DNA from: Cellvibrionaceae bacterium
GTDB taxonomy: Bacteria; Pseudomonadota; Gammaproteobacteria; Pseudomonadales; Cellvibrionaceae
Direction: 5' to 3'
Length of the DNA stretch: 64,000 bases
NCBI GenBank assembly: GCA_965248935.1
Contig: OZ252214.1
Span: 2,097,874 to 2,161,873 of the forward strand
Shown: positions 7,362 through 33,711 of the stretch, piece after piece
Layout: each line of letters opens with the position of its first letter
Position numbering within the stretch: the first letter of the stretch is position 1
Translations under genes and position numbers: made by a program
Notes under the pieces: generated by a model
What the model was told of the DNA's origin: nothing
Databases searched by the model: none
What the model saw: only the letters and a program-made list of their open reading frames with translations

Positions 7362-9644
<2,283 letters not shown>

Positions 9645-9851: not shown

Positions 9852-10388
9852 ATGAAATCCCTTCAAGATCAATTGCTCAACGCGGGCCTAGTGGACAAAC
9901 AATCTGTTAAGCAGGTTAATAAAGAAAAGCGTAAACAAGCAAAGGTTCAACGGCGGTCTAAAGAGGAGTGTGTGGATGAAACCAAACTTCAAGCACAACT
10001 AAACAGACAGCAAAAAGCCGAACGAGACAGAGAACTCAACAAAGAAAGGGACGGGAAGGCCGAGAAAAAAGCCATAGCCGCTCAAATTAAACAACTTATT
10101 CACACTAATAGCATCGACCACAAAGGCGACATTGAATATAACTTTACGGACGGCAGTAAGGTTAAAAAGATCTTAGTGAACAGCAACATGCAACGTCAGT
10201 TAATTTCCGGGCGGCTCACCATTGTCAAACTGGGCGAAAACTACCATATAGTGGTAAACCAAGTTGCAGATAAAATTGCACAACGCAATACCGATTACAT
10301 TATTGTCGCCAATACCCAAACCGATGATACCCTTGAGGAAGATGACCCCTACGCAGATTATCAAATACCGGATGATTTAATGTGGTAG
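9852..10388 (+). CDS. DUF2058 family protein (E. coli YaiL-like).
   Basis: 178 aa. The N-terminus LQDQLLNAGLV and the C-terminal ...DDPYADYQIPDDLMW match my recollection of YaiL (..DDPYADFKVPDDLMW). Confidence 0.75.
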   Translation: MKSLQDQLLNAGLVDKQSVKQVNKEKRKQAKVQRRSKEECVDETKLQAQLNRQQKAERDRELNKERDGKAEKKAIAAQIKQLIHTNSIDHKGDIEYNFTDGSKVKKILVNSNMQRQLISGRLTIVKLGENYHIVVNQVADKIAQRNTDYIIVANTQTDDTLEEDDPYADYQIPDDLMW

Positions 10389-10425: not shown

Positions 10426-11034
10426 TTAGCAAGCCTTATTAAAAACCAATAAATGGTTATTCGCAGGTAAATCACTTTTCTCCGTAAGAGTGAAACCTGC
10501 GGCCTCGGCTAATGCAAGAATTTTTTCAAAATCTCGAATCCCTTGATATTCTGCTCGCTGTTTTAACCAACTATCAAAATTGGCATTACTTGGCGTAGTA
10601 AACGCACCATTAAATTTAAGCGGGCCATAAAGGGCAATAATCGATAGGTTAATAAGCTGACTAAACCCGACAAACATCTTCTCAACCGCCTGCCAAGGCA
10701 TAATATGACAAGTATTGGCAGAATAAACACAATCTATTTTTTCCGGTTGAGCCAGCCCCCATACCGGGGAAGTAACATCTAACTCAACAGGGCGGTGAAG
10801 ATTTCCCCCATGGCTTTCATCAATCCACCGATTTATTCCATCGTGATGTTCAACTAAGTCACTGGTATACCATTGGACATAGGGCAATACCTGTGAAAAA
10901 TATACGCCATGCTGACCTGTCCCACTGCCAATTTCCAGCAGATTTACCCCCTTTTCCGCAGGCAATATACGCCGTAAAACAGCTAAAATGGGGTCTCGAT
11001 TATTTTCACAGGCTTGAGAGAAAGGTTTAATCAT
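10426..11034 (-). CDS. DUF938 family protein (class I SAM-methyltransferase-like fold).
   Basis: 202 aa. The N-terminus MIKPFSQACENNRDPIL and the LLEIGSGTGQH glycine-rich motif match DUF938. Confidence 0.65.
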   Translation of the reverse strand: MIKPFSQACENNRDPILAVLRRILPAEKGVNLLEIGSGTGQHGVYFSQVLPYVQWYTSDLVEHHDGINRWIDESHGGNLHRPVELDVTSPVWGLAQPEKIDCVYSANTCHIMPWQAVEKMFVGFSQLINLSIIALYGPLKFNGAFTTPSNANFDSWLKQRAEYQGIRDFEKILALAEAAGFTLTEKSDLPANNHLLVFNKAC

Positions 11035-11086
11035 ATTTATCGGTAAGAGTGAATACCCCTTAAATAGTATCTATTAAAAACAAGCG

Positions 11087-11530
11087 TTAAGAATCTTGAG
11101 CAATATGCTTTAACAGTTCAACCACCTGGCTTGGCGTCTGCGCCCAAGCCATTGCAGCCCCATCCACTTCTTTTAACGCATGAACACTATGCTCATCGTG
11201 CAAAGTAATATAGGGTTTACCTAAAGCCGCACAAAACCCCGCATCAAAGGCTGCATTCCATTGCTTGTATTTATCCCCAAAGCGAATAACTGCAAGATCA
11301 CACTGCTCAAGATACGTTTTGATACGAATACCATTAACCTTTGCAGATTTATGATCCCGCCAAAACCCTTTTTCTTCGTGCCCCAATACATCTCCAGCAG
11401 CATCACTTTTATCATGCTCAGTAATAGGCGAATAAAAAATAATGGGGAGGTTATACTCTATCGCTTTCGCTTTTATTTGTTCTCGCCAATCTGAGTGTAT
11501 TTCACCGGATAAATAGATTTTCCAATTCAT
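11087..11530 (-). CDS. ytoQ: YtoQ family protein (nucleoside 2-deoxyribosyltransferase-like), intact copy. The tracked ORF extends to 11563; the conserved N-terminus starts at the MNWKIYLSGEIH Met.
   Basis: YLSGEIHSDWREQIK ... FYSPITEHDKSD ... GDKYKQWNAAFDAGFCAALGKPYITL is characteristic of YtoQ. Confidence 0.7.
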   Translation of the reverse strand: MNWKIYLSGEIHSDWREQIKAKAIEYNLPIIFYSPITEHDKSDAAGDVLGHEEKGFWRDHKSAKVNGIRIKTYLEQCDLAVIRFGDKYKQWNAAFDAGFCAALGKPYITLHDEHSVHALKEVDGAAMAWAQTPSQVVELLKHIAQDS

Positions 11531-11602
11531 GGGTATTCGTATATTCATATTTATACCATTCAATATTCAAAATTAGGTTTCCTTATTTTCCCCTTCCCTT
11601 AT

Positions 11603-12175
11603 TTACAGTGCCGCTTCTTGCAAACTATAAAACTCAAGGTCATCACCATAGCCTTTATCCATTAACGCATCGCGTAAAGACTGATGAACTAATATGGCAT
11701 TGCTGGACTCCGCCAAGCGAAACATTTTAATACCGCGTGTTTTCTTTTCATCTATCACCAATTCATCAAAATCAACATCGATAAGAGGCACACCTTCATG
11801 GACGGTGGCTGTAGATTTTTCCATATCCGCCGCAGCAACAAGCCCTAAGATATTTACCGCTTTAAAATTGGTGTGAATACTTCCATCATCTGGGTCTTTA
11901 ATAGCAACATTATAGGCATCAAAATTATACACACCGCAATCTAACAGAGCTTGAATAAAATCACCTCGCCAAAGAGGGGGATTGGTTTCAATAAAAACCC
12001 CCATATATTGATCTTCCGCTGGAGACTCTGGTGTATAAGTATCAAGTAAAAATGGAAGCGGGTCTGGAAGCGGGTCGGTAATCACTGCGCCTTTCCACCA
12101 TGATACACCCGGTATATAGGGAGAGTCCGCTATCCATCGACGTCGCCGCTCACCCGAAGCTAATAAATAGTACAT
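11603..12175 (-). CDS. Putative immunity protein for the AHH-nuclease toxin, orphan copy.
   Basis: The 190-aa ORF is 4 aa different from 16441-17013 and lies directly downstream of the toxin 3' remnant. No family recognised; assigned by position only. Confidence 0.45.
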   Translation of the reverse strand: MYYLLASGERRRRWIADSPYIPGVSWWKGAVITDPLPDPLPFLLDTYTPESPAEDQYMGVFIETNPPLWRGDFIQALLDCGVYNFDAYNVAIKDPDDGSIHTNFKAVNILGLVAAADMEKSTATVHEGVPLIDVDFDELVIDEKKTRGIKMFRLAESSNAILVHQSLRDALMDKGYGDDLEFYSLQEAAL

Positions 12176-12190
12176 AAATTTACCCTATAA

Positions 12191-12424
12191 TTAACCTTGA
12201 TGCTCTTCTTCAATCATATACATTTTCACAAATCTGGATGTAAAAATATTCTTTTTCCAATTTATTGTAGGAAAATTAAGCATTCGATTCATTCGACGTG
12301 AAATAGTATTAAGCCTATTGACAATAACAAAAAGAGGTTCCGTTTCTTCTGGAGGTTTTTCTTTTTTTTCAGCTTCTGGACACCAGACTGATTTACCCGC
12401 TTCTAACTTTTCAAAAAGCCACAT
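12191..12424 (-). pseudogene. 3' remnant (last 77 codons) of the AHH-nuclease toxin gene, the orphan C-terminal fragment produced by the duplication.
   Basis: MWLFEKLEAGKSVWCPEAEKKEK... is identical, bar 1 aa, to the C-terminus of ORF 17029-17814. The repeat boundary falls inside the toxin gene, so no AHH motif is present. Confidence 0.55.
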
Positions 12425-12479
12425 GAATAATTGTAGCGAACAAATGAAAAACGCTTAATATGCATCTACTATTTTTGAT

Positions 12480-13178
12480 TTACACACATTTTGTCGCTAT
12501 AAATAAAACCCGGTCACGGACCACTTTCCAAGCACTTGAGTTGTCCAACATTCCAGGTAAAGTATTCTCATAGTCTGGATGGTTTATTAATAATGTAAAA
12601 CACTCAGATAGATATGATTTAATTTGTGCTTTAGATTCATAGACTAATATATCGATATCTGAACGATGCTCGATCACAAAAAATACATCCTCTAAATCAT
12701 GAGAAAAAATATTATTTTCTCCCCGCCTGGAATAAGCTTCAAACTTAGTACCAAGAAAATACACGGGATCAATTACATTAATTGTTAAATCTGAATTTAA
12801 GACTTTCTCCCAGGCGAAATCCATTGACTCACGGTACCAGCGATTAGAAAAGCCTAATATTTCCTCGTCAATGGGCATCGAGTCCACTTTTAACTTACCC
12901 CCCATAAAAGGCATAGTCCATCGACATATCGGCGCACCCATACTCTGGTCATTAACAAACCCTAATTCACACATTCTCCGTTCAAACGATTGGTAGTTGC
13001 TTTCTACACTAATATCGACAATGAAATCTACATCTTCGGTTTGGCGCGCACTTCCTGCCGCCACATCGTCCACAAGCAATGCTGTGGTCGATCCACCCAC
13101 GAACACCACCTTGTCTTTGAGTTCCTGAAGCTGTACAGCTACCGCAGTGATTTGTTCGATATTGAGCTTGTTGCTCAT
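12480..13178 (-). CDS. Nucleotidyltransferase of the AbiEii/DUF1814-like type IV toxin family.
   Basis: 232 aa. The N-terminal VFVGGSTTALLVDDVAAGSARQTEDVDFIV fits the GG(T)AL...R.SEDIDF signature of AbiEii-type NTases. It overlaps the upstream gene by 4 nt. Confidence 0.65.
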   Translation of the reverse strand: MSNKLNIEQITAVAVQLQELKDKVVFVGGSTTALLVDDVAAGSARQTEDVDFIVDISVESNYQSFERRMCELGFVNDQSMGAPICRWTMPFMGGKLKVDSMPIDEEILGFSNRWYRESMDFAWEKVLNSDLTINVIDPVYFLGTKFEAYSRRGENNIFSHDLEDVFFVIEHRSDIDILVYESKAQIKSYLSECFTLLINHPDYENTLPGMLDNSSAWKVVRDRVLFIATKCV

Positions 13179-13783
13179 GCGTGAAGCCCCATAACAGAGT
13201 CGTGCATCAAGTCCTTTGCATAAACCAGCTCCCGAGGTTTTCCTGTACGAAGAATATCAATCAAAGATAGCAACTCATACAACTCAGAGTCTTTCAGAGC
13301 GGCATCCTGACACCTTGCGTACAACGGCTCAATTAACTCACCTTGTACACTGCCTCCCGCCGCCTGCCACACCATCGGAGTTTCAGGTGGATTCATTGGT
13401 GAAAAAATTAGAGGGCAATTCCAGCCCGTAGGTACTCCCCTCCCATAACCTACTTTCTCTGGAGCAAAGACATGCCGAACCCCATTACATAGCAAGTCAC
13501 TCAATGCATTTCTTTGCACTGAATAGTATTTCCGATTTGATGAAAGTACATCATTGTCTCGAGGCTGCCGCTCCCCAATTAAGCCAAGGTGGATAAGGCG
13601 GTGAATAGATCGAGAGATATCACCCTTGCTTTTGAAAAGATCGGCAGACAAATCACTTACTGAATTGGTTGATATGGGGATCGATTCTTCCGCAGATACC
13701 TCGTTCAAGAGTAAACGAGCGCTTTTCTCGTTCACGCCAATTTTAAGCGCTACCACGATATCCAAGGGCTTTAGTATATGCAT
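13175..13783 (-). CDS. AbiEi-like antitoxin / transcriptional regulator partner of the nucleotidyltransferase.
   Basis: 202 aa with an N-terminal wHTH-like region. The 4-nt start/stop overlap with 12480-13178 matches the abiEi-abiEii operon layout. Confidence 0.5.
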   Translation of the reverse strand: MHILKPLDIVVALKIGVNEKSARLLLNEVSAEESIPISTNSVSDLSADLFKSKGDISRSIHRLIHLGLIGERQPRDNDVLSSNRKYYSVQRNALSDLLCNGVRHVFAPEKVGYGRGVPTGWNCPLIFSPMNPPETPMVWQAAGGSVQGELIEPLYARCQDAALKDSELYELLSLIDILRTGKPRELVYAKDLMHDSVMGLHA

Positions 13784-14219
13784 AACCGTTTCTTGTTTCT
13801 AAAATAGAAACAATATTGAACCAAGCAGCAGAGTTCTGTCAAGTAGTTCGATTAAACAAATCATCTTATTACTTCGGAAACCGGCGGCTTGGCCCAATCT
13901 GAAAGAGGAGTTGTATTCTAACTTATATTTTTAACTACCGTTTTTAGGTTAAATCACGAATTTGTTTAAAAGCCCACAGCGTCAATAATTTCCTATTTGA
14001 CTTCATTTAACCAACGTTTAAATTATCTAGCCGTATTTTTAATTTGCCATCTTACTACTACATAATACAGTCAAAAAGGCATTGTATTAATCAGATCATG
14101 AATATTAAAGCAACTATGAGCGGCGGCCTTTAATCATCACTTTCAATGCTCGCAATTAGGTTTACATGGCCCACCAAAGAAACCAGAAATGATTTTACAC
14201 TTGTATCTCTAGAAACATA

Positions 14220-14450
14220 TTAAACCCCATCTTTTATGGCAGACCTCGGGGATGCAATCACGGAAGCGGCATCATAAAGCTTTTTCTGCATTAGCCTTTT
14301 ACATAACAGATCAAATCTATTCAAATAGGATAAACCCTCGACCTGAGAGTATGCTCCCTTTTTATTTTTAACATAAAGCTCAGATTTCTTTAACGGAGGG
14401 CGAATAGGTTCCAAGTATCTGAACATATATAATAGTCGCTTTGGCCACAT
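14220..14450 (-). CDS. Hypothetical small protein.
   Basis: 76-aa ORF, K-rich, no motif recognised. Confidence 0.25.
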   Translation of the reverse strand: MWPKRLLYMFRYLEPIRPPLKKSELYVKNKKGAYSQVEGLSYLNRFDLLCKRLMQKKLYDAASVIASPRSAIKDGV

Positions 14451-14505
14451 AGAAAATGTTCTATATACCCAACCTATATCGAAAGGAATTAGGCGGGGTG
14501 CATGG

Positions 14506-14745
14506 TTACTTGGCAGTGTCTTTTAGAACTTGCTCTGCCTTTTTAGTCATTTCTTTTACCCCCGGTTTTATAACTGCCTTAACGTGTTTTACTCTTTGGC
14601 GAATATCGGCTGTAGTTTGGGCGTTATTCGTCGTCATTTTTTCCTGATTCCTCAATCTCGTTATATAGCTTTCGTCGCTCAATATCATTTCGTGGGCCAA
14701 AGTGTGGGACTGGTTCGATGCTCTCGGCCTCAAACTCTGAGTCAA
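14506..14745 (-). CDS. Small Lys-rich protein, unit 2 of the tandem mini-gene pair. The probable real start is the internal MTTNNAQTT Met at 14637. The 5' part in this frame is a frameshifted relic of the 'A'-type gene.
   Basis: GAGGAA RBS 8 nt before ATG 14637. The upstream segment, in another frame, encodes ...KDTKKDPYYKDIDSEFEAESIEPVPHFGPRNDIERRKLYNEIEESGKNDDE*, which parallels the 14980-15159 product. Confidence 0.35.
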   Translation of the reverse strand: MTQSLRPRASNQSHTLAHEMILSDESYITRLRNQEKMTTNNAQTTADIRQRVKHVKAVIKPGVKEMTKKAEQVLKDTAK

Positions 14746-14864
14746 TATCTTTGTAATAAGGGTCTTTTTTGGTGTCTTTAAGCGCTTTGCTTAACTTTTG
14801 TCTTGATTTGTTCTCTGCCCATTATTCAAGAGCTTCAAGCATAGAAATTATTAAGTTATTTGCC

Positions 14865-14993
14865 GTTAAAATGAGGGCTGCTTTTTAGCTTATTTGTATT
14901 TGCTTTGATTTTCCCTCTGTCTCGATTTTTAATTCGAGCCTTCGCTTCTTCGAGAGATTTTGCTGGGCCGTTTCCTTTGTTATTCGTTGTCAT
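14865..14993 (-). CDS. Small ORF 'B' (42 aa, MTTNNKGNGPAKSLEEAKARIKNRDRGKIKANTNKLKRQPSF). Its start overlaps the stop of ORF 'A'.
   Basis: Hand-translated; it is below the ORF-track length cut-off. The ATGACAACGAATAA arrangement puts the ATG inside the stop region of the upstream ORF. A paralog (MTTNNAQTT...) sits 350 bp downstream. Confidence 0.3.
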
Positions 14994-15159
14994 TTTTCTC
15001 TCCGTACTTTTCCTCTCGTTTTAGCTCAATTTCATCAAATGAGCCGCTTACAAGCGTATTTGGTTCATCGCCTGGTTTTATATTTTTGCGCCTTTCTTCA
15101 CGGGCTTTTCGACCAGCTTCCATGCGTTTTTTTGCTTCATCTAGTGATTTATCATTCAT
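14980..15159 (-). CDS. Small ORF 'A' (59 aa, MNDKSLDEAKKRMEAGRKAREERRKNIKPGDEPNTLVSGSFDEIELKREEKYGEKNDNE), K/E-rich.
   Basis: Hand-translated. It lies 5 nt downstream of the GNAT-like gene. A frameshifted paralogous copy lies upstream of 14637. Confidence 0.35.
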   Translation of the reverse strand: MNDKSLDEAKKRMEAGRKAREERRKNIKPGDEPNTLVSGSFDEIELKREEKYGEKNDNE

Positions 15160-15163
15160 AGTT

Positions 15164-15730
15164 CTAGCCTCGCAGTTTTAGCGAGCAATATACAGGTAAA
15201 TTTTTGCCTGCGGGTTCAACAAATTCGAATCCGTAGGTGCAATAATAATTCGCTACTTCTTGGTTTACTGGCCGCATTATTCGTATTTCGTCAGCACCCA
15301 GTAAATCTGCATAAATTTGTGCGCTTTCAGAAATAAGTTCAAAAATACGGGCATCTTTCTTGTGAGCGCTTATCGGAGTGCCTTCTATCAGGTTAACCTT
15401 TAGCTGGGTTTTTGCTTGGCTTGGTACTCCATAAACAAGGCCGACAAGGCTTCCCCCACGCTTAACAGATAAATCGTAGCGTTTAAACCGTTTCTTGTCT
15501 GTGTAATAACTATATGCGTTGACCCAACTCCACATTTGTCTGCTCTTGGAGTGATCAGCATTCGCCCAAGTGTCAGCCGTTAGGGCCAAATCTAGCGTAA
15601 TAGGCCCTGATTGAAACCCTGGGTATATGTTATTCATCTCATCGTACATAAGGGTTCGCAATCCTTTATAGAATTTAACTGTTTCACGAAAGCCCATATT
15701 TGAAAAGTCAGTTTCCCTTGCGGTAGACAT
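15164..15730 (-). CDS. GNAT-fold (N-acetyltransferase-like) protein, hypothetical.
   Basis: 188 aa. The C-terminal ...DEIRIMRPVNQEVANYYCTYGFEFV resembles the GNAT motif B region. Weak assignment. Confidence 0.4.
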   Translation of the reverse strand: MSTARETDFSNMGFRETVKFYKGLRTLMYDEMNNIYPGFQSGPITLDLALTADTWANADHSKSRQMWSWVNAYSYYTDKKRFKRYDLSVKRGGSLVGLVYGVPSQAKTQLKVNLIEGTPISAHKKDARIFELISESAQIYADLLGADEIRIMRPVNQEVANYYCTYGFEFVEPAGKNLPVYCSLKLRG

Positions 15731-15922
15731 GCCTGCCTCTTTCTTAGTTATTGAAAGCTAGATTTTAGCACTTCAATGTATCCTTTTAATGTGTACGGAT
15801 ACAAGTTTTTTACCTGTATTGGCATAGGAGTTATGCTATGGAGTTAAAATAATCTTTGTGGGTGGCTACTGCGCTTTAGTAAGAGTGAATACCCCTTAAA
15901 TAGTATCTATTAAAAACAAGCG

Positions 15923-16368
15923 TTAAGAATCTTGAGTAATATGCTTTAAAAGCTCAACCACTTGGGCTGGCGTCTGCGCCCAAGCCATTGCAGCCCCATC
16001 CACTTCTTTTAACGCATGAACACTATGCTCATCGTGCAAAGTATAATATAGGGTTTACCTAAAGCCGCACAAAACCCCGCATCAAAGGCTGCATTCCATT
16101 GCTTGTATTTATCCCCAAAGCGAATAACTGCAAGATCACACTGCTCAAGATACGTTTTGATACGAATACCATTAACCTTTGCAGATTTATGATCCCGCCA
16201 AAACCCTTTTTCTTCGTGCCCCAATACATCTCCAGCAGCATCACTTTTATCATGCTCAGTAATAGGCGAATAAAAAATAATGGGGAGGTTATACTCTATC
16301 GCTTTCGCTTTTATTTGTTCTCGCCAATCTGAGTGTATTTCACCAGATAAATAGATTTTCCAATTCAT
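15923..16368 (-). pseudogene. ytoQ: Frameshifted second copy of ytoQ.
   Basis: Same sequence as 11087-11530 except for SNPs and a 2-nt insertion near 16045. The insertion truncates the reading frame (...GKPYIILCTMSIVFMR*). Confidence 0.7.
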
Positions 16369-16440
16369 GGGCATTCGTATATTCATATTTATACCATTCA
16401 ATATTCAAAATTAGGTTTCCTTATTTTCCCCTTCCCTTAT

Positions 16441-17013
16441 TTACAGTGCCGCTTCTTGCAAACTATAAAACTCAAGGTCATCACCATAGCCTTTATCCAT
16501 TAACGCATCGCGTAAAGACTGATGAATTAATATGGCATTGCTGGACTCCGCCAAGCGAAACATTTTAATACCGCGTGTTTTCTTTTCATCTATCACCAAT
16601 TCATCAAAATCAACATCGATAAGAGGCACACCTTCATGGACGGTGGCTGTAGATTTTTCCATATCCGCCGCAGCAACAAGCCCTAAGATATTTACCGCTT
16701 TAAAATTGGTGTGAATACTTCCATCATCTGGGTCTTTAATAGCAACATTATAGGTATCAAAATTATACACACCGCAATCTAACAGAGCTTGAATAAAATC
16801 ACCTCGCCAAAGAGGGGGATCGGTTTCAATAAAAACCCCCATATATTGATCTTCCGCTGGAGACTCTGGTGTATAAGTATCAAGTAAAAATGGAAGCGGG
16901 TCTGGAAGCGGGTCGGTAATCACTGCGCCTTTCCACCATGATACACCCGGTATATAGGGAGAGTCCGCTATCCATCGACGTCGCCGCTCACCCGAAGCTA
17001 ATAAATAGTACAT
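16441..17013 (-). CDS. Putative immunity protein, cognate copy immediately downstream of the AHH nuclease toxin.
   Basis: 190 aa, 15-nt gap from the toxin stop. Assigned by position in a toxin-immunity pair. Confidence 0.5.
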   Translation of the reverse strand: MYYLLASGERRRRWIADSPYIPGVSWWKGAVITDPLPDPLPFLLDTYTPESPAEDQYMGVFIETDPPLWRGDFIQALLDCGVYNFDTYNVAIKDPDDGSIHTNFKAVNILGLVAAADMEKSTATVHEGVPLIDVDFDELVIDEKKTRGIKMFRLAESSNAILIHQSLRDALMDKGYGDDLEFYSLQEAAL

Positions 17014-17028
17014 AAATTTACCCTATAA

Positions 17029-17814
17029 TTAACCTTGATGTTCTTCTTCAATCATATACATTTTCACAAATCTGGATGTAAAAATATTCTTTTTCCAATT
17101 TATTGTAGGAAAATTAAGCATTCGATTCATTCGACGTGAAATAGTATTAAGCCTATTGACAATAACAAAAAGAGGTTCCGTCTCTTCTGGGGTTTTTTCT
17201 TTTTTTTCAGCTTCTGGACACCAGACTGATTTACCCGCTTCTAGTTTTTCAAAAAGCTTATTCAAAGTATCTTTAACAAAATCGCTATAATCGGGATGCG
17301 CATCGTGAAACTGGCATCGCCATTTCTTCATTGCAGTAAAAGCATATTCCTTTTTATAGGCATCCGTTTTAGAGGACCATGGCCGCACAGCGTAATTCCC
17401 CGGTGACCAGACGCCATTTACTTTAGCGTTAATATTGTACCCAATATTACCCTTGGCTTTACCATCCTTCCAAAGGTACTTATTGGATTTAAATAAACGG
17501 CTCTTCTTAAGTGCTGCATTTCCCGGTATTAAATGATGCGCAGCAACACTAGACTCATACTCTTTATTCTTTATAACCACTGTTTTAACATCAGGTTTAC
17601 CGTCCATTGCCCTGCCCAGTTTACCCGCATCATTTTTAAATTTATAGGTTGGTGACGATTCACCCGTTTTCGCTTCAGCATCTTCATCGTGTGCTTCTTC
17701 CAATTCATTTTCTATCTCGCTTGGCGGTTCAGATGCATTGCAAAACATACAAGTATCTTCTTCGTGCTGAAAGTCCAATACTTGGCTAACACTAACCTTT
17801 TCACCTAATTCCAT
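17029..17814 (-). CDS. AHH-family (HNH/EndoVII superfamily) nuclease toxin, small stand-alone form (261 aa).
   Basis: The SSVAAHHLIPGNAAL motif (Ala-His-His), followed by Lys/Trp-rich segments, is typical of the AHH predicted-nuclease domain of polymorphic toxin systems. The acidic N-terminal ~85 aa may be a delivery/adaptor region. Confidence 0.65.
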   Translation of the reverse strand: MELGEKVSVSQVLDFQHEEDTCMFCNASEPPSEIENELEEAHDEDAEAKTGESSPTYKFKNDAGKLGRAMDGKPDVKTVVIKNKEYESSVAAHHLIPGNAALKKSRLFKSNKYLWKDGKAKGNIGYNINAKVNGVWSPGNYAVRPWSSKTDAYKKEYAFTAMKKWRCQFHDAHPDYSDFVKDTLNKLFEKLEAGKSVWCPEAEKKEKTPEETEPLFVIVNRLNTISRRMNRMLNFPTINWKKNIFTSRFVKMYMIEEEHQG

Positions 17815-17833: not shown

Positions 17834-18892
17834 TTATTGTATTGATACTCGCAGTGCGGCTCTATGCTCTAGGTCCGATGAACAAGTAACCAAATATTCC
17901 GTCTCCACCGCGCCATTGTATGCAGCTTCTGCAATAATACTTATTAATGTTGGTCCAATCGCGGCCCCCAAATCACCGAAACAATCTACCGGGTGATTTA
18001 TACTTGGGTTTTCAATAAAACGCCTAGCCGTTCTACTTAACATAACACCAAGCTCTTTATTGCAAAAACCATCGTAAATCATACTTGTCCAAAGGCTGTG
18101 TATTTTTTCTTCACCGGCATGTGTCGCAGCAAGTTTCGCCGCCTCGGATAACCCCTCTCCCAAATAGGGGGCCGTGCTATACCTATGTCCAGGCTCTTTG
18201 GACAGACCAGGCCGATACAGTTTAATTGGTTTATCTACACTTGCTTGTGCCACGCGACGGGACGACAAGAGTAAGAAAGAGGCACCCTCTCCGGGGAAAA
18301 ACCCATCTACAGCACCAACAACATTCAAACGATCTTCTTTATCTAAGCGAGCCAGTAAGTGTGAGTCCCAGTAGGTATCCACGCCACCAACAAGCACATA
18401 GTCATTGTCTGTGGACTCAAAAAAACGGTGCGCCATCTCAATCGCATACAAGCCCCCAGTTCGTCCAATACAGGCGATTTAACTATCGGCACTATTTAAC
18501 GAAATACCTGATTGCTCAGCCAGTTGCTCCACAAAGTTACCTTTAATGGCTTTGCTTTTCCCTGGTAGTAATTCTGGGAGCGCCAAGAAAAGAGTTAAAG
18601 GGTTGTCTTTTGGTAAGTCATCGTCCAATTGCCGCAAGGCCGATGCCGCTAACCTTAACATTCTTAATTGGCGATCAGGAAGATATTTGGCTGGCAACTT
18701 TTTATTCAGACTTGGAAGCGCCCCATCTGGTACAGTCGCCATTTTGATAGGCTGATACCGCTTGGTTAAGAACCCGGTTTCCTCGAACATGCAAATACCG
18801 GCTGAAATTGCCACAGATGTTTTGAGTGCATTGTCGCCAATTGGTGTCACCACCCCAGTACTGACCACATTGACCCACGGGTTCTCACTCAT
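17834..18892 (-). pseudogene. Degenerate beta-ketoacyl-ACP-synthase (thiolase-fold)-like gene interrupted by an in-frame TAA at 18479-18481. The track splits it into 17834-18451 and 18479-18892, which share one frame.
   Basis: The N-terminus WVNVVSTGVVTPIGDN resembles KAS (..VVTGLGxxSPxGN). ...S*IACIGRTGG... aligns to the KAS active-site ACSSG region, placing the stop 2 codons before the putative Cys. The C-terminal half lacks the His-His region. The second piece starts with TTG. Confidence 0.55.
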
Positions 18893-18952: not shown

Positions 18953-19333
18953 CTAACCCATAATATTCTTTTTGTTGTGATACAAAGGGTCGCCCATTCT
19001 ACAGACGTTTTTACCTTCAAACTTCACGTCAGCGGAGTACATCATAAATTCGCAAACACCCATTTGGTCGCTACTGACCACACCTTTTAAAGTGCCCGCT
19101 TCATCCCCCATACTGCGTGAATATTGAGCGCCTTTGACCATAGGCATTTGGCCATCCACTTTGACTGATTTTGGGCCCTTAGTAGTATCGGAAGATTTTC
19201 CAATATTGGGGTAGGGAATAGGCACTGGACCACCTGGGGTAGGCGTTTTACAGACATCGGGAAATACAGGGCTATAGCCACCACTGCCTTTGTGAACGAT
19301 GCCTCTAGAATTGGTGAATGTAGTTTGTCCCAT
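18953..19333 (-). CDS. PAAR-like domain protein (DUF4150 / Tox-PAAR-like), a stand-alone putative T6SS spike-tip/adaptor protein.
   Basis: 126 aa. RGIVHKGSGGYSPVFPDVCKTPTPGGPVPIPYPNIGKSSDTTKG...GDEAGTLKGVVSS...SADVKFEGKNVCRMGD matches the DUF4150 consensus almost motif-for-motif. Confidence 0.8.
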   Translation of the reverse strand: MGQTTFTNSRGIVHKGSGGYSPVFPDVCKTPTPGGPVPIPYPNIGKSSDTTKGPKSVKVDGQMPMVKGAQYSRSMGDEAGTLKGVVSSDQMGVCEFMMYSADVKFEGKNVCRMGDPLYHNKKNIMG

Positions 19334-19419: not shown

Positions 19420-19878
19420 TTATTTTAATTTTTCAGAGATTTTAAAACAATGCCTAAACGTAAATTTTCTCCATACACCGCAGGATTCAGAGTTATATGG
19501 AATAACAGTACGTTTAGATAGAAAAAGTTCTATTTCCCATATTTTCTTTCCAGAAAATTTAAAACGCACCAAATTAGGTTCGGTTACATCTAATAGGCTA
19601 AACGACCCAGTCCCATATGGCCAAAATAAAACTGCGTGGTCCAAAGTAGTATAGGTTTGATCAAGCAAATAAATATTCAGTGATTCTTTAAATAGAGAAT
19701 CATCTGTAGTAAATACTAGGTAATACTCATTATATTGGATACAAGCATCAAAGAACGCACCATCAATAAAAGTATTAATTGGCGTTCCTTTAATCAAAAT
19801 CTGGCTTTTAGGCGATTTTGTTTCGGTATCTTCAAAAATGAGTTTTGTTGAAAATTCTTGTTCGCTTAGGATCTTCAT
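19420..19878 (-). CDS. Hypothetical protein upstream of the PAAR-like gene. It could be an effector chaperone/adaptor or an immunity protein.
   Basis: 152-aa ORF in an AT-rich region with no motif recognised. Assigned by position only. Confidence 0.35.
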   Translation of the reverse strand: MKILSEQEFSTKLIFEDTETKSPKSQILIKGTPINTFIDGAFFDACIQYNEYYLVFTTDDSLFKESLNIYLLDQTYTTLDHAVLFWPYGTGSFSLLDVTEPNLVRFKFSGKKIWEIELFLSKRTVIPYNSESCGVWRKFTFRHCFKISEKLK

Positions 19879-20494
19879 TAATTAGTACTTATCAGATTAA
19901 ACCCACGCCAAAAGCTCCACAGTGACACATATGCGAGAGTTATTTTCTTACTTCTGCGTGAATGGTATTTTTTTCTACTGATCAAATCATTCAATAAAAT
20001 ATCACTTACGTATAATTTTTGAGCTTTTTTGGCCATAATTTCGTCAAGACCCCTTCCTTAACTGTTTTATTTTTTCGGCTATTACCAGCTTCTAGAGCTA
20101 ACGAATATAGTTTGCTCCATAATCTAATACTCTGTAGCCTAATATTTCTTTTTGGCTCCAATCTATTTTTAGTTACTTAGCCAAATAGTATCGGATCATA
20201 TACCACCAATAAAGATAACCTCCACTCAATTCTAAATTGTTGGCGCACAAGGCCGCAACAGGCAAAAAGCGCCAAAATTACCCTATACCTCACTTATATT
20301 TTATTACTACCGCATAGCTTTTTCTTTTACTCCCGCTTAACAACCCTAATGACGCTGGCTTGAGACTAAGAAAAGCCATTCAACCTATATATTCTTGCTT
20401 ATAATTTATGGGTTCAACTATAAACCTATAAACCGCAGTTGAATTCTCTAAGTCGTTTTATAGGTTGCGACCAACGTTTAATTTTTAAACAATA

Positions 20495-25544: not shown

Positions 25545-28500
25545 TTATTTAATAGGCTTATGCTGAGTCACTTTCACATCAGTTTCTATGCTCTTTAATT
25601 TCTCAAAGACATCTTCTAATTTTTTGTGAGTACGTAAATCAATATTGAGCTTACCTTCCATTGCTCTCACAAGTGGGAAGATGGATGTTTCCAGAGTATC
25701 AGCGATAGTTTTTAATAACAGGTCTATCCCTGGCACAGGTTGGTTGACCACTTCCACTTGGTATTTAGCACCCGCTAAGGTTTTACTAATGGAATCCAGA
25801 GAGCCCAATAAAAGTTTTAGCTGCTCGCCATATTGGCTCCCCTGCTTAAGGGTGCGATTAATCACGGCAAGCTGTCTGGCTGTCATATCTTTAGCGTCTT
25901 TTTCTCCTAAGTTATTCGCACTATCAATAATTGCAGTGGAGATATTTTCCATATGACTGGTAAGTTCAGCTAATTGATTGGCAACCTTGGTACCCGAATC
26001 TGCATTTGCTCCACCCATGATACGATTTTTATTGAATTCTTTTTTGATATTTTCCCAGCGGACACTTTCTTCTTTCGTCAAAACGCCTCGGAGTTCTTTG
26101 AGTTTAAGCAGGTTCTCTTCTGCGCCGGTAGTTAATAATTGTGCTTCGCCAAGGTAATGGTCATTAATAACTTGCTGTAGCTCCTCTTCATTCATCACCG
26201 CAGAAACTTTTTCTGCCATTTTGTTCATATTGCGGTAACTACCTTGCAACTTAAATGAAGGTTCAGTTCGATAAATATCATCCTGTGCAGCAGACGCAAT
26301 ATATTGCTGGTTTACACTCAGTATCACGTCTCGAATTTTAAATAATTTTTGTAGCACGGACGTTATTTCATTCACTTCCGCAGCAGAGTAGTTGTGGGAT
26401 AAATCCGTAGTAGCTACCTCTAGCCCACGCGCTTTGTCCACAAGCTTATACACATCCGACATTTCCCGTGTCGCCATTGGGGCTAAAATAGGGTTGGATG
26501 TCAGTGTATTTTCCAGATAGCTCAATGCGAATACGTCATCCATTCCGCCCAATACGTCACCCAGGTTATAAATATCCGCACGGTTCGCCAGCATATCTGG
26601 GATTTTGAACATCTCACCGGATTCGGTGTAAGGGTTACCGGCCATAATCACGCAGAATTTACGGCCACGCATATCGTAAGTTTTTGTCTCACCTTTCCAT
26701 ATTCCCTCAATACGACGAGTACCATCACATAGCGAAATAAATTTTTGCAGAAATTCGGGGTTTGTATGTTGAATATCATCGAGATAGAGCATCACATTGC
26801 TGCCCATTTCTAAACCTAAATTTAGCTTTTCCAGTTCCTGCTTTGCGGTCGCATTGGGTGCTTGCTCAGGGTCCAGCGAATCCACTTCATGGCCTAGTGA
26901 TGGGCAGTTGATTTTCATAAAAATCAAACCCAATCGGCTGGCAACGTATTCCATTAATGTTGTTTTACCGTAACCAGGCGGCGAGATCATCATCAACAGC
27001 CCCATAAGATCCGTTCGCTTTTTGTCACCGAGGGTACCCATTTGCTTAGCGAGGTTGTCACCAATAATAGGGAGGTATGATTCGTTAATTAATTTATTTC
27101 GTACAAACGAACTTAAGGGTTTAGGCTTAAATTCATCCAGGCGAACAGACTTACGCTGCTCGTCTATCACTTGCTGACGAACATCGAGAAAATTAAAATA
27201 TTCAGGTATCAATACTTGCTGATGGTGTTTGAGTCTTGCTAAAAATTCATCGACAGCAATATCCAATTGTTGATTTTTTAATCGGCTATGTTGCCCCATT
27301 AAACCATTAACAGTAAAGTTTAGGTCTACCTCAGTATGACGGCGGCTTATTCGCTCCTCTGCATTCACAATAGCAATAGCTTCCGGTATATAGTGCGATA
27401 GCAATTCGTGATTGGAATTGTCCACCAATGCCTTGATCCAGGCGTGCGTCAATTGCCAGCGCTTCCCTGCCTGACCTTTAAGTTCCTTCAAGGCTGTTTG
27501 AAAGCCACGCCAAGCACCGGCAACATCCATTTCTTGCTTAAGCTTTTTCGCAAGATCACTCGCATATTTACTGGTGATAAATTCCAGTCGCTCTCTACTC
27601 AATTCGTAAACTAAATATTCCGCCGCGAGTAAATTTATTGCGGTACTGATTTCTACATTCAGGTCTTGAAGCTGAACATATTCCACTAATGCTTTATCTA
27701 CATCGCCAATAAGAAGTTTAAGTGCATCGGAACTAGCAAATGTTTTGTACATTTGGAGTGCAGACTGCGCTCTCACCGTCCATGTTTGTTGCTCCGATTC
27801 GCGTTGTGTATTTGCCCAGAAAATAGTCGCTAATGCGCGTGCATCTGGCGCAAACCTTAATAAATCACAACTTTCTAAGATAGGGAGTAGGGATTGTAGA
27901 ATAACGGCTGCGTCGTGATCGTGAATGCCTTTTTCGTAGCCTTCCTTGTACTTGGGCGTTGCATAAGCACGAATAACTTTTACTAGAGCTTCTTTTTGAG
28001 GGAGAAGTTCGCTTAGTTTTTCAATACTAAGATCGTTCTCTTTCGCCAACGCATCTTGGTAAATGCTATAAGCGAGGTATTCCGCACGATATACTTGATC
28101 ATTTTCTGAAGGGAGGCTCTGCTCCCAGTACTTTGCCAATTCCGTGAGCTTAGGGTGAGTCGCGGTTTCAAAAAAATCCGTTCCCGTTAAATGAAAACAC
28201 AATTTACCATTTCTAGGAATAATAGTAAGGTCCAGCTCTTGGGTATTCACACTGAACTTATGGCGTGGCCCCATTTTAATAACGTTGCCGCCATCTTCAT
28301 AAATATCCGCTTTATCGCGTAACGCTCGAACGGCTTGGTCCTTCGCCGCTTTTAAACGTGCATCAATATCGTCCGCTTTTACAGAGCTATCAAGATTGTG
28401 AAGGTTCTGAACCAACTCTCTACTTTTTAAAACCAACGAATCAGACGCGAAGTAGGTATTGAGTTCATCCACCGAGCTGAACTTCTTGATTCGACGGTTT

Positions 28501-30875
28501 ATATTTTCAATTATGCGTTCCGCTGCGTCTGCAATAGACTGAGCGCGACGTTGTTGTTCGTCTAACAATTGCTGCTTACGATTTTCGAAACTTTCGTAAA
28601 CTTCTTCTCGTTTGGCTACAATGTCGTTAAAAAAGTCGTCAAAGCCACTAAACTGACTTTCTAGCTCTTCCAGTTGTACCAATAAACGAGACATGTGCTC
28701 GTCGCATTTTGCCGGAGTGGAAGCCAAGCTTAGTGCATTGGATATACTCTGAGAGAACAACTTAAATTGAGCCGCAAACTGGGCAACCGCTTCACCCTGT
28801 CCTAGTTGTTTCTCTCTATTTTTCGCTTTAGCTCGTGTTTGGTTAAGCTTTGCGTAAACATCGGATATCGCGTCAATAATGGCCGTTCGTACAGTCGCAT
28901 CCGCCACTTGAAGCGTTGTCATCATTTCAGACAGTAGATCCAAGCCGCCAGCCAGTTTTTCTATCGCCTCTAGAGTAGGAGTAAGTTCGACTATTGTTGC
29001 CGCCGTCTCAATAACTTTTTCCAGTTCAATAAGTTCTTCTGAATAGGGTGCAAGCGCTGTATCTCTCGATAGAAATAATACTGTTTCTTTACCAAGCTTT
29101 TCTTGAGCTTCATTAATTTGTTCTTCGAGGATAGCAATTTTGTTTACATCTATATAACGATATTCCTTCAACGTCATTAAATGACCAAACTGATGCCTTA
29201 AACCATCCAACGCTTCAACGAACTCGCCCGGTGTTTGCCATCTATCAGGATGTATGGAGTCCAGTAATTTCTGCTGTTCCTTTTCTGTTTCTCTTAAAGC
29301 CTCTACTGAGTTCTTTCGAATACTTTCAACTTTTTCAAATTCGTCAAGAATAAGATCCGATGTATCAATTATTTCTTTTAAATCGTCATTAATACTTTGC
29401 GTTTCTGTTGATTCGATCCAGTGATAGGCATCATAAATTCTGCGCGTCGATTTTTGTAAGTCTTCATATAAATACGCAGACGGACTTTGATCATTGATCG
29501 CTCGACAAATACTATAGAGGTCAGAAATACCCCGAACTAATTCCGCATTGCCTATTTTTCCAAAAAAGGACTGGCTGCTAGGTGCGGCGGCGGCAAACTC
29601 TTCCGAGACGTACGGAGTCTGCCACACTTGCATAGGATGTACACGGGTAGGGTCTTCGCCTTCAGCATGGAATATAACCGATTCCCCATCGTCAAAAATG
29701 GTGTAACCGTGGCAATAAATTGGGTTTTGAAGTTGCTTAGTAATTAAGTTATAGGCGAATAGAGCAAAAATACCCTCTTTTTGTTCATAGAAAACATAGA
29801 GTACATCCTCTCCATTTGGAGACTTGATACATCGTTTGAAACGAAGACCTTTTAGGTCATCATCAAACCGCTTTTGTTCACCATTTTGTAAATAGTAACC
29901 ACCGGGAAATATTAATCCATGATTTTCAGGTAATTGTATGCACGATTCCCCTATTGCATCAATTCGATCAACCTGTTGATTGGTTGAATTAAATATAAGG
30001 TAGCGGTATTTTTCTTCTCTATAGGGTTTTATTTTTAATAAAACTAATTCACCCACTTCGGCGAAAAATATATCAGCGTCATCCAACGATTGGGTCTTAT
30101 CTTCAACAGTCTCGCTGTAAATGCCTCGTCCATCTTCAGTATTGTCTTCAACTTTAATGGTTAAATCACCATTTACGGTCTCAACAAAGACTTTATCCTG
30201 AATATTAAAATGTGGATGTTTACCATGCACACTGTATTCACGAGTTACCTCTCGCCATTCAAAATCATATTTGGGAGGCAACGCAATATCACGCTCGCCT
30301 CGGTTATCCATATAGGTAACCGATGTTTGGTCCGCAGAAATACTCCAACGAAATACACGTATATCAGAAACCTTCTCCCCTATTTGAAAAGCCGCCAGAA
30401 GTTTCTGATTTTTTACAACAATTTGAACTAGGCTTGCGTGTTTATAATAAGCGTATAATTCACCGAACTCTTTGCTAAATTGTGGGTCGGCTAAAAAGCT
30501 ATCCGTCATTGACTGAGGCGTCATTTCGAAATTATCGCCATTTTTCTCTAACGTATAGAGGGCGAAAACATCTTCGATTTTGGTTTCTTTTTTTAGGCCG
30601 AGAAAAACATTGTAGCCAAATACAAGCTGACGACCAACCTGAACAATATCACGCGCGGTACAGTTATTTTCTGTACGAACTCGGACACGTCCAACAACCG
30701 ACATATCTGTACTGCCAAATTCATCCGTCCGCGCTTGATTTAAGGTGCGCGCATTCACTTCTAAGCTTTTCCCTTGTTCCACCAAGCGCTTACGTATTAA
30801 TTCGTAAGCTCCACCTTCCGCAACCGCTTGGTTTATAGTACTCGCATTATTTTCATCAACGTTTTTATCAGCCAC
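25545..30875 (-). CDS. Giant (1776 aa) multidomain protein with a beta-rich N-terminal region, long coiled-coil/helical middle and one AAA+ ATPase domain of the AAA_5 (MoxR/McrB/dynein-like) type, encoded at about 26450-27010.
   Basis: Walker A MISPPGYGKTTL, Walker B VMLYLDDIQHTNPEFLQKFISLCD (compare DEINRAxPEVLNxLLxLLE) and a sensor-like CVIMAGNPY (compare ATMNP). It is co-directional with and 119 bp downstream of the flotillin gene. Confidence 0.7.
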   Translation of the reverse strand: MADKNVDENNASTINQAVAEGGAYELIRKRLVEQGKSLEVNARTLNQARTDEFGSTDMSVVGRVRVRTENNCTARDIVQVGRQLVFGYNVFLGLKKETKIEDVFALYTLEKNGDNFEMTPQSMTDSFLADPQFSKEFGELYAYYKHASLVQIVVKNQKLLAAFQIGEKVSDIRVFRWSISADQTSVTYMDNRGERDIALPPKYDFEWREVTREYSVHGKHPHFNIQDKVFVETVNGDLTIKVEDNTEDGRGIYSETVEDKTQSLDDADIFFAEVGELVLLKIKPYREEKYRYLIFNSTNQQVDRIDAIGESCIQLPENHGLIFPGGYYLQNGEQKRFDDDLKGLRFKRCIKSPNGEDVLYVFYEQKEGIFALFAYNLITKQLQNPIYCHGYTIFDDGESVIFHAEGEDPTRVHPMQVWQTPYVSEEFAAAAPSSQSFFGKIGNAELVRGISDLYSICRAINDQSPSAYLYEDLQKSTRRIYDAYHWIESTETQSINDDLKEIIDTSDLILDEFEKVESIRKNSVEALRETEKEQQKLLDSIHPDRWQTPGEFVEALDGLRHQFGHLMTLKEYRYIDVNKIAILEEQINEAQEKLGKETVLFLSRDTALAPYSEELIELEKVIETAATIVELTPTLEAIEKLAGGLDLLSEMMTTLQVADATVRTAIIDAISDVYAKLNQTRAKAKNREKQLGQGEAVAQFAAQFKLFSQSISNALSLASTPAKCDEHMSRLLVQLEELESQFSGFDDFFNDIVAKREEVYESFENRKQQLLDEQQRRAQSIADAAERIIENINRRIKKFSSVDELNTYFASDSLVLKSRELVQNLHNLDSSVKADDIDARLKAAKDQAVRALRDKADIYEDGGNVIKMGPRHKFSVNTQELDLTIIPRNGKLCFHLTGTDFFETATHPKLTELAKYWEQSLPSENDQVYRAEYLAYSIYQDALAKENDLSIEKLSELLPQKEALVKVIRAYATPKYKEGYEKGIHDHDAAVILQSLLPILESCDLLRFAPDARALATIFWANTQRESEQQTWTVRAQSALQMYKTFASSDALKLLIGDVDKALVEYVQLQDLNVEISTAINLLAAEYLVYELSRERLEFITSKYASDLAKKLKQEMDVAGAWRGFQTALKELKGQAGKRWQLTHAWIKALVDNSNHELLSHYIPEAIAIVNAEERISRRHTEVDLNFTVNGLMGQHSRLKNQQLDIAVDEFLARLKHHQQVLIPEYFNFLDVRQQVIDEQRKSVRLDEFKPKPLSSFVRNKLINESYLPIIGDNLAKQMGTLGDKKRTDLMGLLMMISPPGYGKTTLMEYVASRLGLIFMKINCPSLGHEVDSLDPEQAPNATAKQELEKLNLGLEMGSNVMLYLDDIQHTNPEFLQKFISLCDGTRRIEGIWKGETKTYDMRGRKFCVIMAGNPYTESGEMFKIPDMLANRADIYNLGDVLGGMDDVFALSYLENTLTSNPILAPMATREMSDVYKLVDKARGLEVATTDLSHNYSAAEVNEITSVLQKLFKIRDVILSVNQQYIASAAQDDIYRTEPSFKLQGSYRNMNKMAEKVSAVMNEEELQQVINDHYLGEAQLLTTGAEENLLKLKELRGVLTKEESVRWENIKKEFNKNRIMGGANADSGTKVANQLAELTSHMENISTAIIDSANNLGEKDAKDMTARQLAVINRTLKQGSQYGEQLKLLLGSLDSISKTLAGAKYQVEVVNQPVPGIDLLLKTIADTLETSIFPLVRAMEGKLNIDLRTHKKLEDVFEKLKSIETDVKVTQHKPIK

Positions 30876-30994
30876 GTAGAAACCTTCCTGTTGTTTGGCA
30901 CTTATGGCACTAGATATATGCCATAGAAATCAAAGAGTGAGAAGTTGAGTTAACAAGCCGTGAGACTGCCACGGCTTGTTTATTTTACACAGTT

Positions 30995-33016: not shown

Positions 33017-33033
33017 TCCATTTGAGATTAAGA

Positions 33034-33711
33034 CTAATTTTTGAATTTATTTTCTGGAACTACTTGGTAGGTCCCTTTATTTCGGTCGTATTCGATAGGA
33101 ACGACGCGGTCCCCCTTTTTGAGTTCGTTTGGTTCATCTGCCCAAATTCTCAATAGCAAATCTGCGCCCATATCGTTCATCATTGCTTCGCCGAACGATG
33201 ATGTTACTTTGCTAGAACGAATAACAGCCACTTGCCCTAGCACGGTTTTTTCAACTGTTTTTCCCACTTTTTTGAAAAGCGGTCTTAAGGGTTTTATTAG
33301 GGCTGCCGTTACTTTTACGGCAATAAAGAATGAGCCAATAACCGTTCCAGTTCCCGCTAAGAAGGATAACGGACCTGATGGTACAAAATCGAAAAGGAAG
33401 AAAACAGTGTAGTAACAGATAATCCACGCCACAATGCTTAACAACGTTAGCATAATTGTTATGGGCACACCGATAAGCCCCCAACTTATTAGAAAGCCCG
33501 CCACGGCTTCTGCTGTTGCATTGTCCATATTCAAATCAACGTCAGCATCACCGTCGAAATCCAAGTCAAGATCAAAGATATCTAGGTCTAACATCCCCAG
33601 CACAGTAAACAGCCAGAGTACAACCATTACTCCCATAAAAACGGTAAAAATGGCGGTCGGAAATGAAAACGTGATCTTAAAAAATTCTTCAAACATAAGT
33701 GCAAACACCAT
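33034..33711 (-). CDS. YqiJ-like inner-membrane protein (DUF1449, NfeD-like short form). It is the first gene of the operon.
   Basis: 225 aa. Several TM helices plus a C-terminal soluble beta domain. The yqiJ-yqiK (flotillin) pairing is classical. Confidence 0.6.
   Translation of the reverse strand: MVFALMFEEFFKITFSFPTAIFTVFMGVMVVLWLFTVLGMLDLDIFDLDLDFDGDADVDLNMDNATAEAVAGFLISWGLIGVPITIMLTLLSIVAWIICYYTVFFLFDFVPSGPLSFLAGTGTVIGSFFIAVKVTAALIKPLRPLFKKVGKTVEKTVLGQVAVIRSSKVTSSFGEAMMNDMGADLLLRIWADEPNELKKGDRVVPIEYDRNKGTYQVVPENKFKN

Follow-up and report, generated by a model that had tools for sequence, protein, structure and literature searches.

A 1.4-kb direct repeat around a defence-type insert, with a second immunity gene, at a putative type VI effector locus of a Cellvibrionaceae bacterium

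Orphan toxin-immunity modules at Rhs and CdiA loci are reported to have been described by Poole et al. in 2011 and Koskiniemi et al. in 2014. For the orphan immunity arrays in Vibrio cholerae's type VI secretion system (T6SS), an origin by homology-facilitated illegitimate recombination (HFIR) has been proposed (Kirchberger et al. 2017, PMC5361080). Here, we describe an arrangement of this kind in 64,000 nucleotides (nt) from a Cellvibrionaceae bacterium (contig OZ252214.1, positions 2,097,874 to 2,161,873 of the forward strand). This whole stretch is called the window below. The locus encodes an AHH nuclease toxin, a putative T6SS cargo effector, and its immunity protein. The toxin 3′ end, the immunity gene and the core gene ytoQ are present twice, as direct repeat copies R1 and R2. 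An insert of defence-type genes, X, lies between the copies. This R-X-R structure probably arose by recombination between two haplotypes of one locus.

The window has likenesses to both groups of described loci. As in the aux and main clusters of V. cholerae, an active pair is followed by an effector 3′ end and an extra immunity gene, and the origin proposed for those arrays combines a homologous anchor with an illegitimate join. The window departs from those arrays in that its orphan closely matches the active module instead of being of a different type, its duplicated unit runs on into a housekeeping gene and a 3.5-kb defence cargo separates the copies. Rhs and CdiA orphans resemble the window in that the full gene is followed by a truncated toxin 3′ fragment with an immunity gene, and in that direct repeats allow RecA-mediated rearrangement or amplification. 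However, Rhs and CdiA proteins have a large conserved N-terminal core and a variable C-terminal domain, whereas the toxin in the window is small, stand-alone and conserved throughout. The phenomenon is well described for V. cholerae T6SS, Rhs and contact-dependent growth inhibition (CDI) loci, and no new mechanism is opened here. The unusual feature is the trapped defence cargo. The locus offers a clean, datable case of a T6SS locus gaining a spare immunity gene, with defence genes held between kilobase repeats beside a core gene.

Structure of the repeat and its duplicated genes

Self-alignment placed R1 at 11043-12419 and R2 at 15879-17257, in direct orientation and with two defined ends. 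The local alignment covers 1377 positions, with 17 mismatches (98.8% identity) and one 2-nt indel. The indel is an extra TA in R2 at 16042-16043, in the context TATATTA(TA)CTTTG. A first-pass annotation, made by a model from the letters of the window, had given the same coordinates and the same indel, and our alignment reproduces them. In an independent repeat search, the pair appeared as an identical block of 300 nt and another block of 170 nt, whose start-to-start spacings were 4838 and 4836. The longest uninterrupted identity block is 301 nt. BLAST against the whole window found exactly two copies of R1 and a single copy of X. A match of 1.4 kb at 98.8% identity cannot be due to chance.

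Gene order is given here in the direction of transcription. All genes described at the locus are on the minus strand, except DUF2058, which is on the plus strand. R2 is the upstream copy and R1 the downstream copy. The repeat spans the boundary between an effector island and the core genome; its contents are the final 75 codons of the toxin gene, the immunity gene, ytoQ and a 44-nt spacer. In R2, the toxin codons belong to the intact gene and ytoQ is frameshifted. In R1, they form an orphan 3′ fragment, ytoQ is intact and the spacer leads into the native DUF938 junction. The first-pass annotation had allotted these contents to the two copies in the same way and was also right to place one boundary inside the toxin gene. 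Both repeat ends are abrupt. Toxin codon 186/187, at GCTTTTTGAAAA, marks the upstream end. On the downstream side, the repeat stops 44 nt past the ytoQ stop codon and 8 nt ahead of the DUF938 ATG. No microhomology is evident at either repeat junction. Both "empty" junctions are present (an intact toxin gene, and ytoQ directly joined to DUF938), as are both "filled" junctions (frameshifted ytoQ to X, and X to toxin 3′ end).

An arrangement of this sort could be an assembly artefact, either a false duplication of a repeat or a chimeric join of two sub-populations. The locus does contain a frameshift and a nonsense codon, and errors in a consensus can produce such features. However, the copies differ at 17 positions and by an indel, their flanks are coherent and unique, and open reading frames (ORFs) run continuously across the native junctions. 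A collapsed repeat would remove a duplication, not create one. In addition, one NCBI/ENA contig of 4,984,005 bp is the recorded source of the two immunity proteins and of the two ytoQ products. Hence, R-X-R is part of the deposited assembly, and we consider an artefact extremely unlikely.

The intact toxin gene (17029-17814) encodes 261 amino acids (aa). The protein matches PF14412 (E 3.9e-6; 27.3 bits, gathering cutoff 22.3), with the AHH domain, of HNH/EndoVII fold, at residues 87-193. This score bears out the identification as an AHH toxin in the first-pass annotation. The motif AAHHLIPGN is unchanged across 11 toxin homologues. A wider comparison gave 215 matches with full-length conservation, at 50-68% identity among the matches listed. 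These alignments indicate that the toxin family consists of widespread stand-alone proteins of ~260 aa, conserved end to end. The orphan fragment is a 77-codon ORF (12191-12424). Toxin residues 187-261 occupy 75 of its codons (12194-12418), while X supplies the ATG and a Trp codon. The breakpoint at residue 187 falls past the AHH catalytic core and ahead of the conserved C-terminal tail. The fragment should be inert, because the catalytic motif and the AHH core are absent.

Immunity gene copy 1 (16441-17013) encodes 190 aa and, given its adjacency to the intact toxin gene, is predicted to be the cognate immunity gene. Copy 2, the orphan (11603-12175), encodes a protein with three substitutions (N65D, A87T and V163I). 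The immunity protein scores 19.9 bits against Imm11 (PF07791), below the gathering threshold of 22.1. However, homologues from Hahella, which are 42-45% identical, carry PF07791, and we label the gene Imm11-like. We compared the locus with 84 related toxin loci, comprising 80 metagenome loci and four others. In almost all of them an immunity homologue lies directly after the toxin gene. A scan of genome contigs with the immunity protein returned only two distant loci. Promoter-like and terminator-like sites are no commoner at the locus than in shuffled sequence.

We considered whether the orphan module results from classical effector displacement. In the model described for V. cholerae immunity arrays (PMC5361080), an incoming module of a different type replaces the resident effector and pushes the old toxin 3′ end and immunity gene downstream. 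The architecture fits, since the extra immunity gene is immediately preceded by a toxin 3′ fragment, and such units recur in the toxin family at two metagenome loci, L017 and L045. The sequences do not fit. Rather than a different allele, the orphan is 98.8% identical to the active module in nucleotides, and the immunity proteins differ at 3/190 residues. Conservation of the toxin over its full length leaves no constant N-terminal and variable C-terminal parts. Furthermore, the duplicated unit includes core ytoQ, and 3.5 kb of unrelated cargo separates the copies. Displacement is thus very unlikely as the origin of the orphan. The first-pass annotation had seen in the locus the signature of toxin diversification, with orphan immunity and displaced C-terminal (CT) arrays. 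Of this, the orphan-immunity frame survives in part; fragment and immunity units do recur in the family, but this orphan is near-identical to the active module. The "displaced CT array" and the claim of diversification do not survive, given that the 261-aa toxin is conserved end to end and that no other type of toxin has displaced it. Nothing at the locus points to a new specificity of toxin or immunity protein. Apart from such corrections, the first-pass reading holds for the most part.

Origin of the two repeat copies

We propose that two haplotypes of one locus, one carrying X, recombined. One homologous exchange and one illegitimate join would be sufficient to generate R-X-R. A possible route would be HFIR of incoming DNA from a related strain. 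Campbell-style integration of a circle containing R and X would be equivalent. The R copies would have begun as diverged alleles, and intrachromosomal gene conversion would later have homogenised their interiors. An origin of this form, with a homologous and an illegitimate event followed by gene conversion, is the simplest that we can offer for the sequence, and we think it probable.

The positions of the mismatches are consistent with this origin. Eleven of the 17 lie no more than 100 nt from the repeat ends, a number that none of 100,000 random placements reached (P < 1e-5). Six lie no more than 31 nt from the ends (P 2e-4). Divergence is ~6.6% in the outer 80-90 nt at each repeat end, where the changes are mostly synonymous, compared with 0.5% inside. 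Across the toxin 3′ end and ytoQ there are 9 synonymous and 4 non-synonymous changes (P 1.7e-4 under neutrality; P 0.009 if one copy was constrained). This pattern would be expected of alleles that diverged under purifying selection in separate genomes and whose interior was later homogenised. Because the sample is small and the sites are clustered, the mismatches are suggestive only.

The alternative is an origin in situ, within a single genome. Here, a template switch during replication, of the fork stalling and template switching or microhomology-mediated break-induced replication type (FoSTeS/MMBIR), or an unequal sister-chromatid exchange would have duplicated R. X would have been captured at the joint, and gene conversion would have been partial. 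Such an event would account for copies that are 98.8% identical and only 3.5 kb apart. Decay would be expected precisely in the redundant ytoQ and in the toxin fragment, and end-biased divergence is also produced by gene conversion between in situ duplicates. Against this, the changes in the toxin fragment and ytoQ are mostly synonymous, which is unexpected for in-place decay of a non-functional copy even at the more lenient P of 0.009. Although the 5′ end of the toxin fragment has diverged by ~6.6%, the fragment is free of stop codons and indels. X must also be copied from elsewhere, and the window holds no second copy. The absence of junction microhomology is a further point against an in situ event. 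On balance, we regard an in situ origin as possible but rather unlikely. Two further schemes were set aside. A simple tandem duplication is rejected, as its product would be R-X-R-X. It was judged improbable that a tandem R-R formed first and that X then inserted exactly at the joint.

Several observations weigh against recombination between two haplotypes. The 13 changes behind the codon-position argument are clustered and hence non-independent. A second haplotype, with X beside one repeat copy or without X, was not found in the collections searched, and an exact 23-mer from the repeat end is absent from metagenome contigs. The genome is without close relatives in these collections; the protein clusters are either singletons or contain the window's own two copies. 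Exact look-ups with the toxin, the AbiEii-like protein, the immunity protein and the frameshifted ytoQ product matched none of the indexed contigs. With no microhomology, neither junction is identifiable as the illegitimate join. X contains no recombinase or transposase to explain its first arrival. Finally, sequencing errors could account for the ytoQ frameshift and for the nonsense codon of the PRK06147-like gene described below.

The cell is left with immunity genes in two near-identical copies, a toxin tail that is catalytically dead and a redundant ytoQ that is decaying through the +TA frameshift. RecA-dependent recombination has a minimal length of ~25-30 bp. Identity blocks of up to 301 nt between R1 and R2 far exceed this minimum. 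Hence, deletion (loop-out) or amplification of a 4.84-kb unit via RecA is expected, and the proneness to such events put forward in the first-pass annotation is reasonable. Since the stretch 5′ of the indel makes up 1214 of the 1377 nt, the usual product of deletion would be one locus whose ytoQ is intact. More speculatively, the AbiEii-like gene pair within X might counter-select its loss, in the manner of toxin-antitoxin modules at other loci.

Genes of the insert

Insert X (12420-15878, minus strand) is 3459 nt long and is a mosaic of unrelated defence-type cargo between R1 and R2. Its genes have 0 occurrences among the 84 related toxin loci, the PDC-M21 pair and the GNAT-fold gene described below included. 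No match to X was found in plasmid and phage collections, also when blastn was run in a mode suited to distant similarity. X has no recombinase or transposase gene and no flanking inverted repeats of at least 30 nt. We rejected, on these grounds, a transposon or integrative element as the source of X as it now stands.

The first gene of X (15164-15730) encodes a protein of 188 aa and opens a conserved three-gene module. An AlphaFold2 (AF2) model of the protein (pLDDT 70.4; pTM 0.71) was compared with the PDB using Foldseek. The top 50 matches were all GNAT acetyltransferases, with probability 1.0 and template modelling (TM) scores of about 0.5-0.6. No Pfam or NCBIfam model matches the sequence, and a profile search of the PDB gave nothing at E up to 10. 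The protein does match phrog_4350 (E 3.5e-9), and no relative of the family was found in viral contigs. Hence, the GNAT label of the first-pass annotation is upheld for the predicted fold but not by sequence profiles.

Two overlapping mini-genes follow, at 14980-15159 (59 aa) and 14856-14993 (45 aa). Their products are charged and share the motif SL(D/E)EAK(K/A)R. Mini-genes are kept directly downstream of the GNAT-fold gene at L004-L009, L010 and L011, in unrelated contexts. This conservation confirms that they are genuine genes, as the first-pass annotation had supposed. The module occupies 14856-15730 (minus strand) in the window, 10001-10873 in L004, 7913-8609 in L010 and 3044-3942 in L011. 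GNAT-fold proteins of the module have 184-188 aa. The mini-proteins of L004-L009 and L011 have 58-65 aa and 45-51 aa, while the L010 contig shows the first mini-protein only. Close homologues (65-71% identity) were found at only four other places, all in island-like contexts. Their neighbours are Fic, Macro and DUF4172-methylase genes, or an integrase fragment and a tRNA-like sequence. Among 1.84 billion representatives, a profile search returned 282 proteins at E<=1e-3. The GNAT-fold protein and two mini-proteins may form a toxin-antitoxin or defence module that has not been described. An apparent second mini-gene start (MTTNN, 14506-14745) was also seen, with only about 20 nt of similarity.

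Further downstream, an ORF at 14220-14450 matches positions 145-187 of the 191 in PF04555 (E 1.4e-9), the XhoI family of type II restriction endonucleases. It also matches the PADLOC model REase_II (E 6e-9). By these matches, it is a C-terminal remnant and a decayed restriction-modification fragment, with no methyltransferase gene nearby.

The last two genes of X form a pair. Upstream is PDC-M21A (13175-13783; 202 aa; PADLOC PDLC04515, E 1.9e-28), a putative winged-helix partner or antitoxin. Its stop codon overlaps the start of PDC-M21B (12480-13178; 232 aa; PADLOC PDLC04516, E 1e-54), which is an AbiEii/DUF1814-type nucleotidyltransferase by its matches. PDC-M21B also matches PF08843 (E 3.9e-7; 30.7 bits, cutoff 22.5) and shows GGS...RQTEDVD motifs. 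The pair resembles AbiE, a type IV toxin-antitoxin and abortive infection system, in several respects. Both are two-gene operons with overlapping stop and start codons, a protein with a weak winged-helix signal upstream and, downstream, a PF08843 nucleotidyltransferase with GGS and RxTxDxD motifs. However, a search at E up to 5 matched PDC-M21A to no AbiEi Pfam model; MarR_2, HTH_5 and HTH_36 were the only hits (E 0.05-0.1). The best match of both proteins is the candidate system PDC-M21. The "AbiE pair" of the first-pass annotation is thus retained for its AbiEii half and given up for its AbiEi half.

There are two bolder readings, namely that R-X-R is a cassette mobilised by recombination and, as a separate matter, that the GNAT-fold protein and mini-proteins are an undescribed toxin-antitoxin or defence system. 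We rate this pair of readings as quite unlikely. Were the cassette reading true, RecA-mediated loop-out would yield a 4.84-kb circle containing the cargo and a homology arm made of toxin 3′ end, immunity gene and ytoQ. The circle could re-integrate by a single crossover into any conspecific that has the effector locus, and the AbiEii-like pair would stabilise the insert. In this way, phage-defence genes would spread without an integrase, using a T6SS immunity locus as their homology landing pad.

The effector island, its relatives and other loci in the window

Upstream of the toxin gene are two genes that link it to type VI secretion. A PAAR-like (DUF4150/Tox-PAAR-like) spike-tip protein is encoded at 18953-19333 (PF13665, E 6.9e-41) and clusters at 90% identity with DUF4150 proteins of Cellvibrio. 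A PRK06147/TvpD-like (ketosynthase-like) T6SS accessory gene follows at 17834-18892 and lies directly ahead of the toxin gene. Its two halves match NF004798 separately (E 6e-29 and 6e-8). The gene has an in-frame TAA at codon 138 (18479-18481), where L001 has Leu and L002 Arg. A single change, TTA to TAA, would produce this stop, which may reflect a decaying effector module or a sequencing error. At the amine-oxidase edge of the island are two ORFs of 152 aa and 52 aa (19420-20036) without family matches. The 152-aa ORF has no counterpart in the related loci searched. Rfam gave no match between 9.5 and 20.5 kb.

On the other side, the intact ytoQ (11087-11530) is a nucleoside 2-deoxyribosyltransferase-like gene at its native junction (PF11071, E 3.2e-59; TIGR03646, 206.4 bits, cutoff 155.35). 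The second copy is a pseudogene (15923-16368), which tblastn splits into two frames at the +2 (TA) frameshift. DUF938 (10426-11034) and DUF2058 (9852-10388, plus strand) follow the intact copy. In L003, the closest relative found, whose ytoQ is 82% identical, the order is amine oxidase, a 178-aa lipoprotein, ytoQ, DUF938 and DUF2058, and effector genes are absent. Between amine oxidase and ytoQ there is ~1.0 kb in L003 and ~9.0 kb in the window. Because L003 keeps the synteny of ytoQ, DUF938 and DUF2058 without effector genes, ytoQ is a core gene flanking an inserted island. At more distant ytoQ loci (L094-L096) the synteny is not shared, and they carry no information on the ancestral state. 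We rejected ytoQ as a functional part of the toxin system, since it is found in 0/84 related toxin loci.

The island is best described, from its gene content, as a reduced, stand-alone T6SS effector module between the amine oxidase gene and ytoQ. T6SS core genes are absent from the 64-kb window, and no VgrG, DUF2169 or DUF6484 gene lies near the module. On the basis of gene neighbourhoods, a role as T6SS adaptors has been proposed for homologues of PRK06147 (PMC7714669). They have also been proposed as a co-chaperone, TvpD, for DUF4150/PAAR proteins (bioRxiv 10.64898/2026.02.23.707444). In the vgrG1b-type Tvp cluster of Pseudomonas aeruginosa, VgrG, DUF6484, DUF2169/TvpA and PRK06147/TvpD accompany the PAAR-nuclease Tse7 (bioRxiv 10.64898/2026.02.23.707444). 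As in that cluster, the window has PRK06147-like and DUF4150/PAAR-like proteins beside a nuclease effector and an immunity gene. Unlike that cluster, it lacks VgrG, DUF6484 and DUF2169, its PAAR-like protein is separate from the toxin and its PRK06147-like gene stops prematurely. Two related loci resemble the Tvp cluster more fully. L012 has the full set of VgrG, DUF6484, DUF2169, PAAR-like protein, a 425-aa protein, PRK06147-like protein, AHH toxin and immunity protein. L013 has DUF6484 and DUF2169 but not VgrG.

Linkage of the PAAR-like, PRK06147-like, toxin and immunity genes extends to almost all related loci with enough flank, including L001, L002, L012 and L013. A comparable cluster of Hahella chejuensis contains two Imm11 genes in tandem. 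In L017 (4205-7607), the active pair is followed by two units of toxin 3′ fragment and immunity gene, with fragments starting from residue ~202. L045 (8001-10433) has one such unit, starting from residue ~189. L046 (6502-10115) has a duplicated full pair and an extra immunity gene, and L047, L016 and L013 have one extra immunity gene each. The arrays of L017, L045 and L046 involve the same toxin and immunity families as the window, and their breakpoints fall in a similar region of the toxin (~189 and ~202, compared with 187). They differ from the window in that units are strictly tandem with nothing between them, end soon after the immunity gene and are 84-94% rather than 98.8% identical; for the tandem units of toxin 3′ fragment and immunity gene, a nucleotide identity of 90-94% was recorded. 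We found no earlier description of tandem arrays of toxin 3′ fragment and immunity gene for this AHH family. Across these loci, this stand-alone toxin family repeatedly builds tandem arrays with similar breakpoints, which is useful for annotating orphan immunity genes.

A different state was observed in L001 (8670-10537), which derives from a metagenome-assembled genome (MAG). There, the PRK06147-like gene is followed by ~270 nt and then by an immunity homologue, 67% identical to that of the window, whose first ~11 codons are absent. L001 looks like a toxin-deleted, immunity-only remnant, because no toxin gene lies between the PRK06147-like gene and the immunity homologue.

Three other regions of the window were recorded. 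At 25545-33711 (minus strand), two proteins without a Pfam match (673 aa and 225 aa) precede a 1776-aa DUF3686/DUF7902/AAA protein. This cluster may be a large operon of defence or repair type. The region 43914-52416 (minus strand) contains a complete type I restriction-modification system, with HsdM at 49912-52416, HsdS at 48587-49918 and HsdR at 44704-48024. A YgjP-like metallopeptidase gene (43914-44711, minus strand) accompanies these genes. Finally, an M4 thermolysin-like protease with a CBM5/12 module is encoded at 7401-9644 (plus strand). Its long poly-serine linkers are specified by 45-nt tandem repeats at 9324-9509. Secreted enzymes with poly-serine linkers are typical of marine polysaccharide degraders, and the style of the protease fits with the clustering of the PAAR-like protein with Cellvibrio proteins.

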